Source: a virus (Duplodnaviria > Heunggongvirae > Uroviricota > Caudoviricetes). Taken from it: a DNA stretch of 37,513 nucleotides. Below are positions 1 through 15,408 of this stretch, piece by piece. The first letter of the stretch is position 1. Every line of letters starts with the position of its first letter. The stretch lies in the IMG/VR virus record IMGVR_UViG_2724679239_000004; one strand, written 5' to 3'. The notes under the pieces were generated by a model, which made no database searches, was not told the DNA's origin, and saw nothing but the letters and a program-made list of their open reading frames with translations. A program made the translations under genes and the position numbers.

Positions 1-747
1 TTATTCTTGAGAGATACATGGTTCCCCCTTGCTGAGCCACGGCCCCTGATTGACGGTGCGTTCCCCAAACAGCCACTGCTGACGATTTAGAGGAACATCC
101 CGGCGGCGTACTATTTTGCTCGCGACCAGGCCATCGTGCTCCCCTTCCCACCAGCATTCATCCTGAAGTTTCGGGAGTGAGACGTTCAGTTTGCGGAAAT
201 GATTCTGATATTGTTGGTATGCGTTACGTAAAACATCAGACACGTTACCTTCGAGCAGTAATGGCGCAAGTGGTAATGCCAGCGGATGACTTTTTCGCCC
301 CAGATAAAGCGGAAAAACCGGATGACGTAAACCTTCCTGCAACTGTTCGAGGCTGTAAGGCGCATCGGTAGTTTTTGCCACAGCAATCATCCACCAGGCA
401 TCGGTGTGGTAGTCGCGCCGGGAGATAATCGCGCTCAGAAGATCAGGGTCGCTCAACTCCTCGCGACGGCTGAAATAACGCGCTTTACGCACCTCTTTTG
501 GCATCTGGACCGTGTGATAATCCCGTGCCCAGCGCGGGTTACGGCTGGCGCAAACCACCAGTGAATAGTGGCGGTTAAACGCGTTTAATCGTTCGGTATC
601 ATCACGTCGAATTCCAACCCCGGCAGCCAGCAGCCCCAGCAATGCTGAGCGCGAAGGCAGTTCATGGGTATGACGTACTTCGCCGGGGGCATCAACGCCC
701 CATGATGCCATCGGCCCGTGAAGCTGAAAAATCAGATATTGGCTCAT
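1..747 (-). CDS. casD: Cas5e (CasD)-like subunit of type I-E Cascade; host gene
   Basis: 248-aa ORF with motifs recalled from Cas5e: N-terminal YLIxQLxGPMxSWG, RSALLGLLAAGVGIRRDDT, RDYHTV, YLGRKSHPL. SD-like AAGGGG about 9 nt upstream of the ATG at 745-747. Confidence 0.6.
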   Translation of the reverse strand: MSQYLIFQLHGPMASWGVDAPGEVRHTHELPSRSALLGLLAAGVGIRRDDTERLNAFNRHYSLVVCASRNPRWARDYHTVQMPKEVRKARYFSRREELSDPDLLSAIISRRDYHTDAWWMIAVAKTTDAPYSLEQLQEGLRHPVFPLYLGRKSHPLALPLAPLLLEGNVSDVLRNAYQQYQNHFRKLNVSLPKLQDECWWEGEHDGLVASKIVRRRDVPLNRQQWLFGERTVNQGPWLSKGEPCISQE

Positions 748-1182: not shown

Positions 1183-1707
1183 TTATACAGCTTTCTTTAC
1201 ATCGTTTTCTCTTACAGGGAAATTATGTTCTTTGCCTTCATACTGAGACAAAATCTCTCTTACTTTTTCCGGTGGTAATGCCTGAAGAGTTTGCAGGGTT
1301 TTCTGTTGCTCCACAGTAATCCCTAATGCCTCTAATGCCTTATCTTTACTGACAATTGTAGGCATAAGTCCTTTAATCCCTGCTACACGAATGATCTCCA
1401 CAGCTGCGGCCTGCTCATCTGGTGTTAAGAAGCTCATTGCATAAATTAGCCTCTCATCAACTGTATGGGCGATTGATGTATGCACTGGTTTATCAGAAAG
1501 TGAGGCACCTTTAATGGCCCTGCGTGTTTCTTCTGGCAGACTGTTGATGTGATACTCATAAGCGACACCTTTCCCACCATGACGCTGACGTTTTACCCAA
1601 TCTTCCGCCACAGCTTTCCTGGTAATGTTAGTCGCCAACTTTGGTACACCAGGCATCCCTTCCAGCTCTTTCGCATTAAACCATTCTTTGATTTCAAAAG
1701 ACATCAT
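1183..1707 (-). CDS. c: phage repressor c (D108-type)
   Basis: 174-aa leftward ORF at the left end. Its N-terminus ([22 protein letters not shown]) is homologous to the N-terminus of the transposase ORF ([22 protein letters not shown]), as expected for Mu-family repressors. Confidence 0.85.
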   Translation of the reverse strand: MMSFEIKEWFNAKELEGMPGVPKLATNITRKAVAEDWVKRQRHGGKGVAYEYHINSLPEETRRAIKGASLSDKPVHTSIAHTVDERLIYAMSFLTPDEQAAAVEIIRVAGIKGLMPTIVSKDKALEALGITVEQQKTLQTLQALPPEKVREILSQYEGKEHNFPVRENDVKKAV

Positions 1708-2121: not shown

Positions 2122-4110
2122 ATGAAAGAATGGTATACAGCAAAAGAGTTGCTCGGTTTGGCAGGTTTACCAAAGCAAGCCACTAACATTACACGTAAGG
2201 CACAAAGAGAAGGCTGGGAGTTCAGGCAGGTTGCAGGGACTAAAGGTGTATCATTTGAATTCAATATCAAATCATTCCCTGTCGCATTACGTGCTGAAAT
2301 TCTGTTGCAACAAGGGAGAATTGAAACAAGTCAGGGGTATTTTGAAATCGCCCGCCCCACGCTGGAAGCCCATGATTATGATCGTGAGGCACTGTGGAGC
2401 AAATGGGATAACGCCAGCGATTCCCAGCGCAGACTTGCTGAAAAATGGTTGCCTGCGGTTCAGACTGCAGACGAAATGCTGAACCAGGGGATTTCAACAA
2501 AAACGGCTTTTGCGACCGTTGCAGGGCATTACCAGGTCAGCGCATCTACTTTGCGGGACAAGTATTACCAGGTACAGAAGTTTGCGAAGCCTGACTGGGC
2601 GGCTGCGCTTGTTGATGGACGTGGTGCATCCCGTCGCAACGTTCATAAAAGTGAATTTGACGAGGATGCCTGGCAGTTTCTGATTGCAGATTATCTGCGA
2701 CCGGAAAAACCCGCCTTCCGCAAATGTTATGAGCGTCTGGAACTGGCAGCCCGCGAGCATGGCTGGAGTATTCCCTCCCGTGCCACGGCCTTTCGCCGGA
2801 TTCAGCAACTGGACGAGGCAATGGTTGTTGCCTGCCGTGAAGGTGAACATGCACTGATGCATCTGATACCGGCACAACAACGAACTGTGGAACACCTGGA
2901 CGCCATGCAGTGGATCAACGGCGACGGTTATCTGCATAACGTCTTTGTACGCTGGTTTAACGGTGATGTGATCCGCCCGAAAACATGGTTCTGGCAGGAT
3001 GTGAAAACCCGAAAAATTCTGGGCTGGCGCTGCGATGTGAGCGAGAACATTGATTCAATTCGCCTCTCGTTCATGGATGTTGTGACTCGCTACGGTATCC
3101 CGGAGGATTTTCACATCACCATTGATAACACCCGTGGTGCTGCGAATAAATGGCTGACGGGAGGCGCGCCCAATCGCTACCGCTTTAAGGTGAAAGAAGA
3201 CGATCCAAAGGGGTTGTTTTTACTGATGGGTGCGAAAATGCACTGGACAAGCGTTGTTGCCGGTAAAGGCTGGGGCCAGGCAAAACCTGTTGAACGTGCT
3301 TTCGGTGTTGGTGGGCTTGAGGAATACGTTGATAAGCATCCGGCACTGGCTGGCGCATATACGGGGCCAAATCCGCAGGCAAAACCTGATAACTATGGCG
3401 ACCGCGCTGTTGATGCAGAGCTGTTTCTGAAAACCCTTGCCGAAGGTGTGGCGATGTTCAATGCCAGAACAGGCCGTGAAACAGAAATGTGCGGGGGCAA
3501 ACTCTCGTTTGATGATGTTTTCGAGCGTGAATACGCCAGAACGATTGTGCGTAAGCCAACCGAAGAACAAAAACGGATGTTGTTACTGCCTGCCGAGGCG
3601 GTGAACGTTTCACGCAAAGGCGAGTTTACGCTTAAAGTTGGCGGCTCCCTTAAAGGCGCGAAAAACGTTTATTACAACATGGCATTAATGAATGCCGGCG
3701 TGAAAAAAGTTGTGGTCAGGTTTGATCCACAGCAGCTACACAGCACGGTTTATTGCTACACCCTGGACGGTCGGTTTATCTGTGAAGCGGAATGTCTGGC
3801 ACCAGTTGCATTTAATGATGCTGCGGCAGGCCGTGAGTATCGTCGACGCCAGAAACAACTGAAATCTGCAACTAAAGCAGCCATTAAGGCGCAGAAACAA
3901 ATGGACGCGCTGGAAGTTGCTGAACTGCTGCCGCAGATAGCCGAACCAGCAGCACCAGAATCAAGGGTTGTTGGTATTTTCCGGCCTTCCGGTAACACGG
4001 TGCAGGTGAAATACCAGGAAACCGATGATGAATATGAAACTGATCGTGATGAATATCTGAATCACTCGCTGGATATTCTGGAACAGAACAGACGTAAAAA
4101 AGCCATTTAA
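2122..4110 (+). CDS. A: DDE transposase MuA
   Basis: 662 aa. From [21 protein letters not shown] onward it matches recalled MuA closely, including the C-terminal ...[13 protein letters not shown]; the N-terminal roughly 70 aa are divergent (D108-like). SD AGGTG precedes the ATG. Confidence 0.95.
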
Positions 4111-4147
4111 TTAACGTTTAAACAAAATTTATTACGAGGTTATTCAG

Positions 4148-5086
4148 ATGAATATTTCTGATATTCGCGCAGGACTGCGCACGCTTGTAGAAAGCGAAAA
4201 AACAACTTATGCGCAAATCGCCCGCGAATCTGGAGTTGCCGCAGGAACGTTAAGCGCGTTCGTGAATAACAAGTACAACGGCGATAATGAGCGTGTTGCG
4301 CAGACGCTGGAACGCTGGCTGGAGAACTATCACCGCGCCGCAGAACTGCCAGAACCCCCTCGATTTGTGGAAACCAGAACAGCACGTCAAATCTGGACGA
4401 GTATGCGCTTTGCCAGCCTGACTGAAAGTATTTCCGTTATCTGCGGTAATCCAGGTGTGGGAAAAACTGAAGCAGCCCGCGAATTTCGTCGCACCAATAA
4501 CAATGTCTGGATGATCACCATTACCCCATCCTGCGCCAGTGTTCTGGAATGCCTGACTGAACTGGCTTATGAACTGGGAATGAATGACGCACCGCGTCGT
4601 AAAGGGCCACTCTCCCGCGCTTTGAGACGCCGTCTCGAAGGTACACAGGGGCTGGTCATTATCGACGAAGCTGATCATCTTGGCGCAGAAGTTCTGGAAG
4701 AACTCCGCCTGTTACAGGAATCCGCCCGTATTGGTCTTGTTCTGATGGGGAATCACCGCGTTTATTCAAATATGACCGGCGGAAACAGAACGGTTGAATT
4801 TGCCCGCCTGTTTTCCCGTATTGCAAAACGGACGGCAATCAATAAAACCAAAATTGATGATGTAAAGGCCATTGCGGATGCCTGGCAAATTACCGGCGAA
4901 AACGAGCGGGAATTATTACAGCAGATTGCGCAAAAGCCAGGTGCACTTCGTATCCTGAACCACTCGCTGCGCCTTGCTGCCATGACGGCCCACGGCAAAG
5001 GTGAACGTGTTAATGAAGATTATCTGCGTCAGGCTTTCCGTGAATTAGACCTGGATGTTGATATTTCAACCCTGCTGCGTACGTAA
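4148..5086 (+). CDS. B: MuB target-DNA activator ATPase
   Basis: 312 aa, Walker A GNPGVGKT and Walker B LVIIDEAD, immediately downstream of A. Confidence 0.9.
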
Positions 5087-8003: not shown

Positions 8004-8307
8004 TGGCGTATTTACAAAATCAGAAGAACTTACAGCCCTGCTGATTGCCGGTGGTTTACCGGAAAACGAGGTCAACGACTTTGTGGCCTTTGTATATGCC
8101 CCGTCTTACGAACAGGCTATTGATGAGGTCATGGCGTACCGACTGGGCATTGTTGCTGAGTCACTGAGTCCTCACTGGATTATTGAAAATCTCCGCACTA
8201 TTGCTGATGGCAACGATAAAGTGGCGGCTGTCGCCGCCCTTGATGTGCTGCAACGTATGAACAGGGAACTATTCAATCCCGAGTTTCTTTTTAAGAAACG
8301 AGGTTAA
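7996..8307 (+). CDS. hypothetical early protein
   Basis: ATG 7996 preceded by AAGGTG (alternative GTG 7981); 103 aa. Confidence 0.4.
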   Translation: MNNGVFTKSEELTALLIAGGLPENEVNDFVAFVYAPSYEQAIDEVMAYRLGIVAESLSPHWIIENLRTIADGNDKVAAVAALDVLQRMNRELFNPEFLFKKRG

Positions 8308-8685
8308 CCACTGTTTGCCGACGTCTGTTACGAGCGTCATCGGGGCGTCGGCAAGCTCCTGTTTTATACGCTCAAGAATGGGTTTTTGATGTAGTGCTTT
8401 CGCAAAATCATGACCATCTTGTGTGAGTCTGACACTGGTGCCTGAATATGAATATCCGAGGCTTGTCGGGGTGAGACCAATGCTTTTTGCGGTGCCTGTT
8501 TTCAGATATCTGTTGCTGATAAAACCATTTTCAACCAGCAACAGAAGATGGAAAACCAGCTTCTGATGGCTGTCGCTGTGCCGCTGAGAACGATCCCAGC
8601 CGACATCTTCCAGTCGAATGAATGCAGTGTCGGCCTCCAGGAATACATCAAATATTCTGGCTATCTCGTCATAATCAATTTTCAT
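8269..8685 (-). CDS. leftward winged-helix-like protein (DUF2513-like) embedded in the rightward early operon
   Basis: 138-aa minus-strand ORF filling the only stretch (8308-8715) with no plus-strand ORF; SD AAGGAA 6 nt upstream of its ATG; LTQDGHDFAKAL resembles the LT.xGH.FL motif of DUF2513 winged-helix proteins. Confidence 0.5.
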   Translation of the reverse strand: MKIDYDEIARIFDVFLEADTAFIRLEDVGWDRSQRHSDSHQKLVFHLLLLVENGFISNRYLKTGTAKSIGLTPTSLGYSYSGTSVRLTQDGHDFAKALHQKPILERIKQELADAPMTLVTDVGKQWLTSFLKKKLGIE

Positions 8686-12561: not shown

Positions 12562-13140
12562 ATGATGGACAGGAAAACACGGGGACGGGCTTCAAAAGTG
12601 GATTTACTGCCGGAAAACGTGCGCAAAACACTGCATGAAATGCTGCGTGACAAGGCGATCCCACAGGCCCGCATTCTGGAAGAAATTAACGCCCTGATTG
12701 AAGACGCCGGACTGCCTGATGACATGAAACTCTCCCGTTCCGGCCTGAACCGTTACGCGACAAACGTCGAACAGGTAGGCCATAACCTGCGACAGATGCG
12801 TGAAATGACGTCAGCACTGACCGCAGAACTTGGCGACAAACCAATGGGGGAAACCACAAAGCTGATTCTGGAAATGGCCCGCAGCCAGCTTTTTAAAGCC
12901 ATGATGCGGCAAATCGAAAAACCGGAAGATGACGTGGATATTGAACTGCTGAAAAACGCCATGCTGGCAGCACAGCGTCTGGAATCCACGGCAATGTCCA
13001 GCCACCGACGCGAGAAAGAGATCCGCCAGGCGTTTGCAGAAGAAGCGGCAAACGCCGTCAGTGAAGAACTGCGCGGGCAGGATGGTATCAGCGAAGAACT
13101 GGAGCAGCGTATCCGTGATGTGTTGCTGGGTAAAGCGTAG
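12562..13140 (+). CDS. DUF3486 protein (Mu gp27-like, putative small terminase subunit)
   Basis: 192 aa; N-terminal SKVDLLPENVRKTLHEML resembles the DUF3486 signature; precedes the large terminase. Confidence 0.55.
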   Translation: MMDRKTRGRASKVDLLPENVRKTLHEMLRDKAIPQARILEEINALIEDAGLPDDMKLSRSGLNRYATNVEQVGHNLRQMREMTSALTAELGDKPMGETTKLILEMARSQLFKAMMRQIEKPEDDVDIELLKNAMLAAQRLESTAMSSHRREKEIRQAFAEEAANAVSEELRGQDGISEELEQRIRDVLLGKA

Positions 13141-13167
13141 GAGTTACGTTATGAAAAATGATTACAA

Positions 13168-13186
13168 GGCGCTGCTAATCAGCGCC
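13168..13186. terminator. hairpin between convergent gp27-like gene and the minus-strand ORF
   Basis: GGCGCTG-CTAAT-CAGCGCC; on the minus strand it is followed by TTGTAATCATTTTT. Confidence 0.4.
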
Positions 13187-13199
13187 CATCGAAAGGCTT

Positions 13200-13688
13200 T
13201 TACTGTAGCCGGGTGTTTAGATACTCAAACGGTGATTCAATGTCAAGCTGTGATTCACCGAGCACTTTATATGGGAGCTTCATTGCGTAATACAAATAAG
13301 CTACTGCAAATTTTGTTTGTGCCGACTGAGAAAGTCCGACAGGGATGTGCATAAGTTCGGTGTTATTGGCGAGTGCATTAGTTACGCAGAGAATAGTTGC
13401 TTGATTATGGCGTTCCAGAAGAACACGCCAGACAACTAACGGAATTTCTGACCAGTCATCATCCTTCATCAGAAAATCCTCAATGGCATTATCTGCATCT
13501 TTTTCAAATTGTTTTCGGTAACTAATCGTTCTGATTTGCTCTATGCGTGGTGTGAATCGCTCATTCAGGGGCCAAAGGCGTTCGAGTGTTTCCCATCCGT
13601 TTATTGAGACAAATTGAACAGTATCCATAGATTGCTTTAATTCTGTTTCACAAAATATTTCAAGTAGTTTTATTGCTTTTGGTGACAT
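13200..13688 (-). CDS. AT-rich leftward moron ORF between the terminase genes, function unknown
   Basis: 162-aa minus-strand ORF filling an approx. 550-bp stretch with no convincing plus-strand gene; SD GAGGG 6 nt upstream of its ATG; visibly lower GC and AT-rich codons than the flanking late genes. Confidence 0.55.
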   Translation of the reverse strand: MSPKAIKLLEIFCETELKQSMDTVQFVSINGWETLERLWPLNERFTPRIEQIRTISYRKQFEKDADNAIEDFLMKDDDWSEIPLVVWRVLLERHNQATILCVTNALANNTELMHIPVGLSQSAQTKFAVAYLYYAMKLPYKVLGESQLDIESPFEYLNTRLQ

Positions 13689-15408
13689 GACGTTCCCTCA
13701 GGTATTTAAAGAAAACCGAAGTATTATGGCTGAAAAAATAATGAGGTATGAAAAAAATAGCCGGGGCAAAAAGCTGATTCCGTCAAGTGAACCCCGCCAG
13801 ATTGATCTTCAGGAAGAAGCAACCAAACTTGGTGTCGAGATCGTTACAGACATCACTAACGCCCAACCATCTAATGAACCGGTTTTTCTGGGCTATCAGC
13901 GCCGCTGGTTTGAGGATGAAAGCCAGATTTGTATTGCTGAAAAATCCCGTCGTACCGGTCTGACATGGGCCGAAGCGGGCCGCAATGTCATGACGGCCGC
14001 AAAGCCGCGTCGCCGTGGTGGTCGCAACGTCTTTTATGTGGGTTCCCGTCAGGAAATGGCGCTGGAATACATCGCCGCCTGTGCCCTGTTTGCCCGCGCC
14101 TTTAACCAGCTGGCAAAGGCTGACGTCTGGGAGCAGACCTTCTGGGACAGCGACAAAAAAGAAGAAATCCTCACCTACATGATCCGCTTTCCGAATAGTG
14201 GATTTAAGGTGCAGGCGCTTTCAAGCCGCCCGTCTAACCTGCGTGGTTTACAGGGGGATGTGGTGATTGATGAAGCGGCATTTCATGAAGCCCTGGATGA
14301 ACTCCTGAAAGCGGCCTTTGCGCTCACCATGTGGGGTGCACGCGTGCGGATCATATCGACACATAACGGCGTCGATAACCTGTTTAACCAGTACATTCAG
14401 GATGCGCGTGAGGGGCGCAAGGATTACAGCGTTCACCGTATCACGCTGGACGATGCCATCGCTGACGGGCTGTACCGGCGTATCTGTTATGTTACGAATC
14501 AACCGTGGTCGCCGGAAGCGGAGAAAGCCTGGCGTGATGGCCTGTACCGGAACGCGCCGAACAAAGAGAGCGCCGACGAGGAATACGGCTGTATTCCCAA
14601 AAAATCCGGTGGCGCTTACCTGTCCCGTGTCCTGATTGAAGCTGCCATGACACCCGCGCGGGATATCCCGGTTCTGCGTTTTGAAGCCCCGGACGATTTT
14701 GAATCGCTGACACCGCAGATGCGCCACGGTATCGTTCAGGGCTGGTGTGAACAGGAGCTGCTCCCGTTGCTCGATGCGCTGTCGCCGCTCAATAAACACG
14801 TACTGGGCGAAGACTTTGCACGCCGTGGCGACCTGACGGTGTTTGTGCCGCTTGCCATCACTCCAGACTTACGCAAACGCGAATGTTTCCGCGTGGAGCT
14901 GCGTAATGTGACCTATGACCAGCAGCGACAAATCCTTTTATTCATTCTGTCCCGTTTACCCCGTTTTACCGGCGCTGCATTTGATGCCACCGGTAACGGC
15001 GGTTATCTGGCAGAAGCCGCCCGTCTGATTTATGGCCCGGAGATGATCGACTGTGTGAATCTGACCGCATCCTGGTATCAGGAGTGGATGCCAAAACTGA
15101 AAGGCGAGTTTGAAGCGCAGAACATCACGATTGCCCGGCACCAGACCACACTTGATGACCTGCTCCACATCAAAGTAGACAAAGGTATTCCGCAGATTGA
15201 TAAGGGGCGCACAAAAGATGAAGGCGGTAAAGGCCGACGACATGGCGACTTTGCCGTGGCGCTCTGTATGGCTGTCAGGGCGTCTTATATGAATGGTTTT
15301 GTTATCGACGAGGACAGCATACAGGCGCTGCCACCACGCCACCGTGGTGATGATGTTGATAACGATGGTTTTGATGATTATCACCAGTTTGAACGAGGGG
15401 GCTGGTAA
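13687..15408 (+). CDS. large terminase subunit (Mu gp28-like)
   Basis: 573-aa ORF at the head of the packaging/head block, directly upstream of the portal. Start uncertain (13687, 13726 or 13740). Confidence 0.75.
   Translation: MTFPQVFKENRSIMAEKIMRYEKNSRGKKLIPSSEPRQIDLQEEATKLGVEIVTDITNAQPSNEPVFLGYQRRWFEDESQICIAEKSRRTGLTWAEAGRNVMTAAKPRRRGGRNVFYVGSRQEMALEYIAACALFARAFNQLAKADVWEQTFWDSDKKEEILTYMIRFPNSGFKVQALSSRPSNLRGLQGDVVIDEAAFHEALDELLKAAFALTMWGARVRIISTHNGVDNLFNQYIQDAREGRKDYSVHRITLDDAIADGLYRRICYVTNQPWSPEAEKAWRDGLYRNAPNKESADEEYGCIPKKSGGAYLSRVLIEAAMTPARDIPVLRFEAPDDFESLTPQMRHGIVQGWCEQELLPLLDALSPLNKHVLGEDFARRGDLTVFVPLAITPDLRKRECFRVELRNVTYDQQRQILLFILSRLPRFTGAAFDATGNGGYLAEAARLIYGPEMIDCVNLTASWYQEWMPKLKGEFEAQNITIARHQTTLDDLLHIKVDKGIPQIDKGRTKDEGGKGRRHGDFAVALCMAVRASYMNGFVIDEDSIQALPPRHRGDDVDNDGFDDYHQFERGGW

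Follow-up and report, generated by a model that had tools for sequence, protein, structure and literature searches.

The stretch of DNA analysed here, IMG/VR virus record IMGVR_UViG_2724679239_000004 (37,513 nucleotides (nt); "the window" below), is a Mu-like prophage, and this report concerns the genes that lie between its gp27-like small terminase subunit gene (terS) and its large terminase gene (terL). The terS product is 97% identical to Mu gp27. In Mu, D108 and SfMu only 7 bp separate the gp27 stop codon from the gp28 ATG, whereas in the window terS and terL are 585 bp apart. The left edge of this insert is the end of terS, and the most likely terL start, according to the gene calls in identical public contigs, is at 13726, giving a protein of 560 amino acids (aa). 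Two genes that converge and overlap tail to tail occupy the insert. These are a 162-codon open reading frame (ORF) on the minus strand, ORF162, and a short plus-strand gene which we call mini-F; the last 51 codons of mini-F are antisense to the last 51 codons of ORF162, an overlap of 155 nt. The positions of these and associated features are collected in Table 1.

Table 1. Features of the terS-terL interval of the window, with the flanking terminase genes and the repressor gene
Feature	Position	Strand	Basis
terS, gp27-like small terminase subunit	12562..13140	+	PF11985 (E 1.3e-52), phrog_426 (E 2.6e-67)
mini-F Shine-Dalgarno sequence, AGGAG	13139..13143	+	sequence; overlaps the terS stop codon
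mini-F, 67 aa	13151..13354	+	MuF N-terminal homology, conserved open frame
Hairpin, 7-bp GC-rich stem	13168..13186	-	covariation in class B
ORF162, 162 aa	13200..13688	-	homologues, codon signature, AlphaFold2 model
ORF162 Shine-Dalgarno sequence, GAGGG	13695..13699	-	sequence; purine-rich equivalents in related loci
Candidate sigma-70-like promoter	13723..13752	-	scan, 9/12 matches
Large terminase (terL)	13726..15408	+	phrog_2 (E 9.6e-48)
Mu-type repressor (c)	1183..1707	-	PF02316 (E 3.2e-51); tblastn with Mu c, ner, A, B

A preliminary description of this DNA, made from its letters alone, had reported the unusually large gap, a minus-strand ORF of 162 aa preceded by GAGGG, a hairpin at the 3' end of that ORF and a low G+C content with AT-rich codon use, and had recognised no family for the protein. 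All of these observations hold. The G+C content of 13141-13725 is 40.5%, compared with 53.5% in terS and 54.8% in terL; G+C at third codon positions is 0.35 in the minus-strand ORF as against 0.58 in the flanking genes; and the GAGGG stands 6 nt before the ATG. The cassette is likewise low in G+C in nearly every related phage locus. The same description had proposed a comparison of the interval in Mu, D108 and their relatives. Both flanks align at 93–94% nucleotide identity with Mu, D108, SfMu and several Yersinia Muvirus genomes, and about 600 bp are missing there. Its idea of horizontally acquired cargo is thus borne out insofar as the insert is accessory, low in G+C and missing from Mu and its closest relatives, but the minus-strand ORF is one half of a convergent pair and not a lone gene. 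The limits of the insert have also to be widened on one side. They had been given as 13141-13725; in DNA alignments with Mu, Yersinia phage Tongde and contig L084 the sequence departs from that of Mu between 13141 and about 13865, so that roughly the first 46 terL codons belong to the replacement. The G+C content of this 5' part of terL (13726-13860) is 43%. These N-terminal codons (MAEKIMRYEKNSRGKKLIPSSEPRQIDL...) are foreign in comparison with Mu gp28 (MNTRENNLKALHAPRKINL...) and make the gene 11 codons longer, and the terL start context ATTATGGCTGAnAAA moves together with the cassette.

ORF162 is a genuine, conserved gene. A search of 5.8 billion proteins found 16 homologues (13 full-length at 162–163 aa; 51–100% identity) in Escherichia, Salmonella, Aeromonas and uncultured phages, and 1.84 billion cluster representatives searched with a profile yielded 168 clusters at the 50% identity level (E <= 1e-3), mostly with proteins of about 160 aa. 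There are full-length homologues with as little as about 30% identity. Outside the overlap with mini-F, the mean pairwise divergence among seven divergent loci is 0.56–0.59 at the third codon position, 0.18–0.20 at the second and 0.29–0.30 at the first, which is a textbook coding signature. The motifs LWPLN, ADxAI, WRVLLERxxQ and MxLP are conserved, and R93 and P116 are invariant across 73 sequences of the family. N42, Y57, D66, R88, E92, R93 and Q96 make up a cluster of conserved residues. A confident AlphaFold2 model built from the 16-sequence alignment (predicted local distance difference test score, pLDDT, 83; predicted template modelling score, pTM, 0.79) consists of six helices, two short strands and a tail of low confidence from residue 136 onward. 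The protein is soluble, acidic and mostly helical, and it belongs to a previously unnamed family.

Comparisons with named families gave nothing significant. None of 73 family members matched PHROGs v4 or NCBIfam; in Pfam-A there was one marginal match among the 73 (MDMPI_N, E 0.0019), and in PADLOC-DB 2.0 the window protein had no match and one of the 73 members a marginal one (Csx15, E 0.0079). PDB sequence searches with the 16- and 73-sequence profiles returned only chance-level matches to BUD31 and complex I, and Foldseek found no match with E < 1 in PDB or BFVD. No match came from tblastn with three family members against 50,697 deposited phage genomes (INPHARED) or from a megablast search of 5,426 complete E. 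coli genomes with the insert. One specific candidate, an HEPN RNase (from the string RVLLERH, an R-x4-6-H motif in a helical domain), was rejected because the histidine of its R-x5-H is not conserved in the family. No HNH, GIY-YIG, LAGLIDADG or PD-(D/E)xK nuclease motif or fold was seen.

The plus-strand gene had escaped notice. The preliminary description saw no credible gene on that strand, a statement which mini-F overturns, and gene callers recorded mini-F just once in the protein collection; they dropped it almost everywhere because it is overlapped by a longer ORF. Its ATG lies 10 nt past the terS stop codon, and GGAG or GGGG is kept at the position of its Shine-Dalgarno sequence in related loci. 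In phages whose small terminase is a DUF1804 protein the mini-F ATG itself overlaps the terS stop, and these overlaps of the mini-F ATG or Shine-Dalgarno sequence with the end of terS suggest translational coupling. The frame is open, with a start codon and Shine-Dalgarno sequence, in every terS-terL locus examined, and it has a start codon in almost every one of some 40 distant loci, which share the motif W-x7-H-x2-AF|SVA...GASF. The W-x7-H-x2-AF part lies in the N-terminus, outside the overlap, so the conservation of mini-F is no by-product of ORF162 coding. In addition, wobble divergence of ORF162 is 0.36 within the overlap and 0.58 elsewhere, and this reduction indicates a second constraint there. 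The earlier description had held that a conserved plus-strand gene in the interval would count against its reading of the minus-strand ORF; mini-F is such a gene, and the minus-strand frame is conserved as well.

Profile comparison (hhalign) of mini-F with the head-morphogenesis protein MuF gave a P value of 5.8e-8 (4.8e-6 when Tongde was left out), and a profile of the distant mini-F sequences gave 3.4e-8; all three mini-F sets align in register with MuF residues 31-88, the profile of the terS-terL loci with residues 33-86. Mini-F is thus homologous to the N-terminal segment of MuF and derived from it. We regard the MuF-like motif as the decisive evidence for mini-F, because openness of the frame is weak evidence by itself and a Salmonella orphan locus (below) has no start codon. 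A Pfam hmmscan of eight mini-F sequences did not detect PF04233 (best E 0.15, for one member), and mini-F is too short for the PF04233 core. A single-sequence AlphaFold2 model shows three helices at low confidence, and mini-F is predicted to be a three-helix protein of about 60 aa.

The distant relatives sampled (seven genome loci and 45 IMG/VR loci) extend the occurrence of ORF162 to three kinds of locus. In class B, the type found in the window and in all close homologues, the gene lies between terS and terL on the opposite strand, with a constant gap of about 37 bp to the next start codon. In class A (at least 17 IMG/VR loci as well as Azospirillum, Rhodocyclaceae, Thiobacillus and Sulfitobacter genomes) the gene is flanked by a Ner-like gene and the MuA transposase gene; it shares the strand of the repressor and is antisense to the early operon. 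In class C (about 11 loci) it is the final gene of a repressor-led operon that usually includes a lipoprotein gene, and the lysis or late genes come next. The ORF162 relative is on the repressor strand in all three classes, and in the window the c repressor gene and ORF162 are both on the minus strand. A tail-to-tail overlap of about 150 nt between ORF162 and mini-F recurs in about 40 loci, at 30–50% identity and in all three genomic positions. The interval is a self-contained cassette of two convergent, overlapping genes, and this cassette is widespread among Mu-like prophages of alpha-, beta- and gamma-proteobacteria and is not a one-off acquisition. In four of the class C loci (L051, L061, L072 and L082, at about 3300-5000) variable lipoprotein genes lie between the repressor and the family member, as is typical of superinfection-exclusion cargo. 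A HicB-like neighbour suspected in a Nitrospirae locus (L020) was not confirmed by Pfam.

The two genes do not always travel together. A Salmonella enterica chromosome (CP123007.1; L026, 6001-6489) carries an ORF162 relative (40% identity) outside any prophage, in a chromosomal island where an intimin/invasin-like gene with a CesT chaperone gene lies on one side and a fimbrial operon on the other. This orphan is intact in hundreds of S. diarizonae/arizonae contigs. In the IMG/VR locus L032 (5001-5485) a 1-nt deletion shifts the ORF162 frame near residue 118 and the mini-F core is intact; the ORF162 copy there is either a pseudogene or a sequencing error. The separate occurrence of the partners bears on the idea that the cassette is an addiction module or resembles a toxin-antitoxin system, with antisense pairing of the 3' ends regulating poison and antidote. 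The cassette has the two small genes, the mobility and the predicted convergent, overlapping transcripts that such a module would have, and its arrangement recalls the par (Fst) locus, which reportedly has a convergent RNA I/RNA II layout. However, no member of the ORF162 family matches a toxin or antitoxin family (Pfam, NCBIfam, PADLOC), the HEPN-like motif is not conserved, either partner occurs alone, and a toxin without an antidote would not be expected to survive in hundreds of Salmonella genomes. We consider such a module improbable.

The terS-terL junction itself is variable. The insert is absent from 13 of 14 matched Mu-group phage records, and the fourteenth, Tongde, has a different insert at the same junction. 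Between the window and the two class B loci L010 and L014, identity is 90% for terS and 82% for terL, and it is 65–68% for ORF162 and 51–57% for mini-F. Between the window and L011, whose terS is a DUF1804 protein, the values are 18% and 20% for terS and terL, and 50% for both ORF162 and mini-F. Such comparisons indicate a history of the cassette that is decoupled from that of its flanks, and ORF162 is an accessory, mobile gene. Tongde (L002, 1148-1530) has a free-standing mini-F and a 64-aa plus-strand ORF at the gp27/gp28 junction. In contig L084 (3001-3548) a free-standing mini-F is accompanied by two further ORFs, one of 65 aa on the plus strand and one of 64 aa on the minus strand, the latter preceded by a Shine-Dalgarno sequence; the first 45 or so nt past the terS stop are identical in L084 and the window, and this stretch may therefore be a recombination joint. 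DUF1804-type phages (L011, 5757-5963; L031 and L033-L037) have a 68-aa ORF (MADKLIRVNS...) between the cassette and terL, with the same conserved start context and no Pfam match. The gp27/gp28 junction of Muvirus is thus a cargo hotspot with at least four states, namely empty, Tongde-type, L084-type and window type.

Three explanations have to be weighed against this background. A selfish gene of the homing type, aimed at the terS-terL junction and carrying flanking sequence along with it, would account for a precise position that recurs in unrelated terS/terL backgrounds and for a co-converted segment that reaches the 5' end of terL. We rejected the homing-endonuclease idea because a nuclease signature is absent (the protein is in fact acidic) and because relatives sit elsewhere, at two other, unrelated sites; a gene of this kind is very improbable indeed. 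Homing and the toxin-antitoxin explanation are both disfavoured by the lack of a matching motif and by the finding of each partner alone. The second explanation, an ordinary single-gene moron with a defence, exclusion or host-modulating role, in which mini-F is an unrelated late gene and the overlap is compaction without coupling, deserves more attention. The junction is clearly a variable hotspot, mini-F stands beside other cargo in Tongde and L084, and ORF162 persists in Salmonella without a startable mini-F. It is the overlap that speaks against it, since unlinked genes should not stay paired, tail to tail over about 150 nt, in about 40 loci at three positions. We hold this explanation to be the strongest of the competitors, but unlikely.

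In the third explanation the cassette is a phage-internal regulator of lysogeny or of head assembly and packaging and does not act on other phages, with ORF162 modulating the repressor, transposition or terminase and mini-F competing with MuF at the portal. The family occurs almost exclusively in Mu-like elements, where it adjoins regulatory (ner, c, A) or packaging genes, mini-F stems from a head-assembly protein, and the nearest fold to ORF162, which we offer as a lead only, is that of HI1480, another Mu-like prophage protein. Set against these points, Mu, D108 and SfMu function without ORF162, ORF162 evolves faster than its flanks, and relatives are kept in non-phage contexts. A purely regulatory role within the phage thus seems rather doubtful to us.

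Two kinds of signal bear on how ORF162 might be expressed. On the minus strand the promoter candidate is TTCATA, 18 nt, CATAAT, at a suitable distance for a leader of some 27 nt. Read as its reverse complement, the -10 hexamer is the terL start ATTATG, which is invariant in all class-B loci; the -35 hexamer of the candidate is poorly conserved. The hairpin (GGCGCTG-CTAAT-CAGCGCC) lies 13 nt downstream of the ORF162 stop, within mini-F codons 6-12. Across 12 related loci 95% of the cells are paired, with compensatory double changes in three of the seven pairs; none of 500 shuffles reached the observed score, and controls slid along the sequence failed. Minimum free energy z-scores of -2 to -3.4 were found in class-B loci only. 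A terminator scan did not call the hairpin, and we rejected it as a family-wide feature because it is restricted to class B. It is probably a 3'-end or terminator structure of the ORF162 transcript.

Our favoured reading, to which we give a probability of roughly 0.5, is that ORF162 is a lysogeny-side accessory gene that is opposed by a lytic-side mini-protein, mini-F. ORF162 relatives are co-oriented with the repressor, so a lysogen-expressed accessory function is probable on grounds of gene orientation, and this co-orientation favours such a role over an early anti-defence role; the defence or anti-defence function that the preliminary description thought frequent in such cargo is a guess. 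Transcription of ORF162 would start at a weak candidate promoter of its own, of sigma-70 type, would run counter to the lytic operon and would stop at the conserved hairpin. The protein would be made while the late or early lytic operon is silent and would give the lysogen an accessory function, most plausibly the exclusion of incoming phages or some interference with them. Once the lytic operon is switched on, transcripts reading through from Plys would yield mini-F, and colliding transcription together with the 155-nt antisense overlap would shut off ORF162. More speculatively, the mini-F protein may neutralise or compete with the ORF162 protein, for which the pairing of the two genes is the sole hint, and the cassette may move between phage backbones by recombination, with the terS-terL junction as one of three permitted sites.

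A more specific form of this idea is a new kind of exclusion-and-antidote module peculiar to transposable phages, in which ORF162 in the lysogen would bind the three-helix N-terminal segment of the MuF-type head or pilot proteins of superinfecting Mu-like phages and so block them, and mini-F, aided by antisense silencing, would titrate ORF162 during the phage's own lytic cycle. If this were true, mini-F-only phages such as Tongde would carry an escape gene. We put it forward tentatively and think it unlikely in this exact form.

Several observations weigh against a lysogeny-side gene opposed by mini-F. The ORF162 family has no significant match to a toxin, antitoxin, defence or regulator family in Pfam, PHROGs, NCBIfam or PADLOC, and a regulatory role would suit an acidic cytoplasmic protein without an enzymatic motif equally well. 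The promoter candidate is a weak match, and the scan that found it gave overall no more sites than did shuffled sequences; the hairpin has no clean U-tract and is present in class B only, not in A or C. With respect to the partner, when the ORF162 protein sequence is taken as given, an open frame on the other strand is of only weak significance (per-locus P 0.07–0.28, Fisher 0.01), and the Salmonella orphan has the mini-F frame open but lacks its start codon. No cognate-specific similarity of mini-F to the resident MuF was found. Finally, the presence of mini-F without ORF162 in Tongde and L084 means that the genes are not strictly interdependent.

Other features of the window may be mentioned here. 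Its leftmost ORF (1-747, minus strand) is a host Cas5 gene (PF09704, E 8.7e-32), so the prophage is inserted in, or directly beside, a type I CRISPR-Cas operon, and its left end must fall between about 750 and 1180. A second minus-strand ORF, of 138 aa (8269-8685), lies immediately upstream of gemA inside the rightward early region. Pfam gave no match to it, public contigs of identical sequence have it annotated as a gene, and it is another candidate antisense moron.

If the analysis is correct, it establishes a protein family, so far without a name, that has at least 168 clusters at 50% identity, and a partner gene that was never annotated; the two make up a conserved cassette of overlapping sense and antisense genes in Mu-like prophages of the three proteobacterial classes named above. 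It would also provide an example of a gene whose orientation against lytic transcription may confine it to lysogeny, and it reveals an annotation blind spot, as mini-F is systematically missed by gene callers. The locus is a moron-type accessory locus whose sense/antisense two-gene architecture is unusual and conserved and whose protein family is so far undescribed; searches of the literature on HI1480, FluMu and terS-terL morons in Mu-like phages turned up no account of ORF162.

Comparable accessory regions are known in Pseudomonas Mu-like phages, where plasticity regions F and G coincide with low G+C and region G has anti-CRISPR genes (Cazares et al. 2014, PMC4378225). The cassette resembles these regions and the lambdoid morons in being an accessory insertion at a fixed junction, in a G+C trough, with candidate signals of its own and with a presence that varies among close relatives. 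It differs from them in that it is a convergent, overlapping pair found at three sites across distant phages, and in that it reads against the operon. Mini-F shares the pattern NWxExLAxAHARAFTVAKA...IR..V..AI..G.T..EF...L with residues 31-88 of MuF (the MuF/SPP1 gp7 group, PF04233), but at about 60 aa it lacks both the PF04233 core and the conserved PP...CxC motif. It is a fragment-sized MuF paralogue rather than a MuF protein.

The Haemophilus influenzae protein HI1480 (PDB 1mw5) is treated as an "orphan" in the literature. Its gene is presumably located in the FluMu prophage, and the protein is said to bind nucleic acid. It is 6% identical to ORF162 and was listed neither by the PDB profile search (E <= 10) nor by Foldseek, so homology of the two is a lead and not a result; if the link holds, ORF162 would give this structural-genomics orphan its first family context.

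The proposed expression of ORF162 in the lysogen has parallels in the prophage exclusion genes rexAB of lambda and sieB/esc of P22, which are embedded in lytic operons and expressed while the surrounding operon is silent; at the P22 locus the phage also encodes an escape function. These genes have no sequence or fold relation to ORF162, and no such antisense overlap is known in them.

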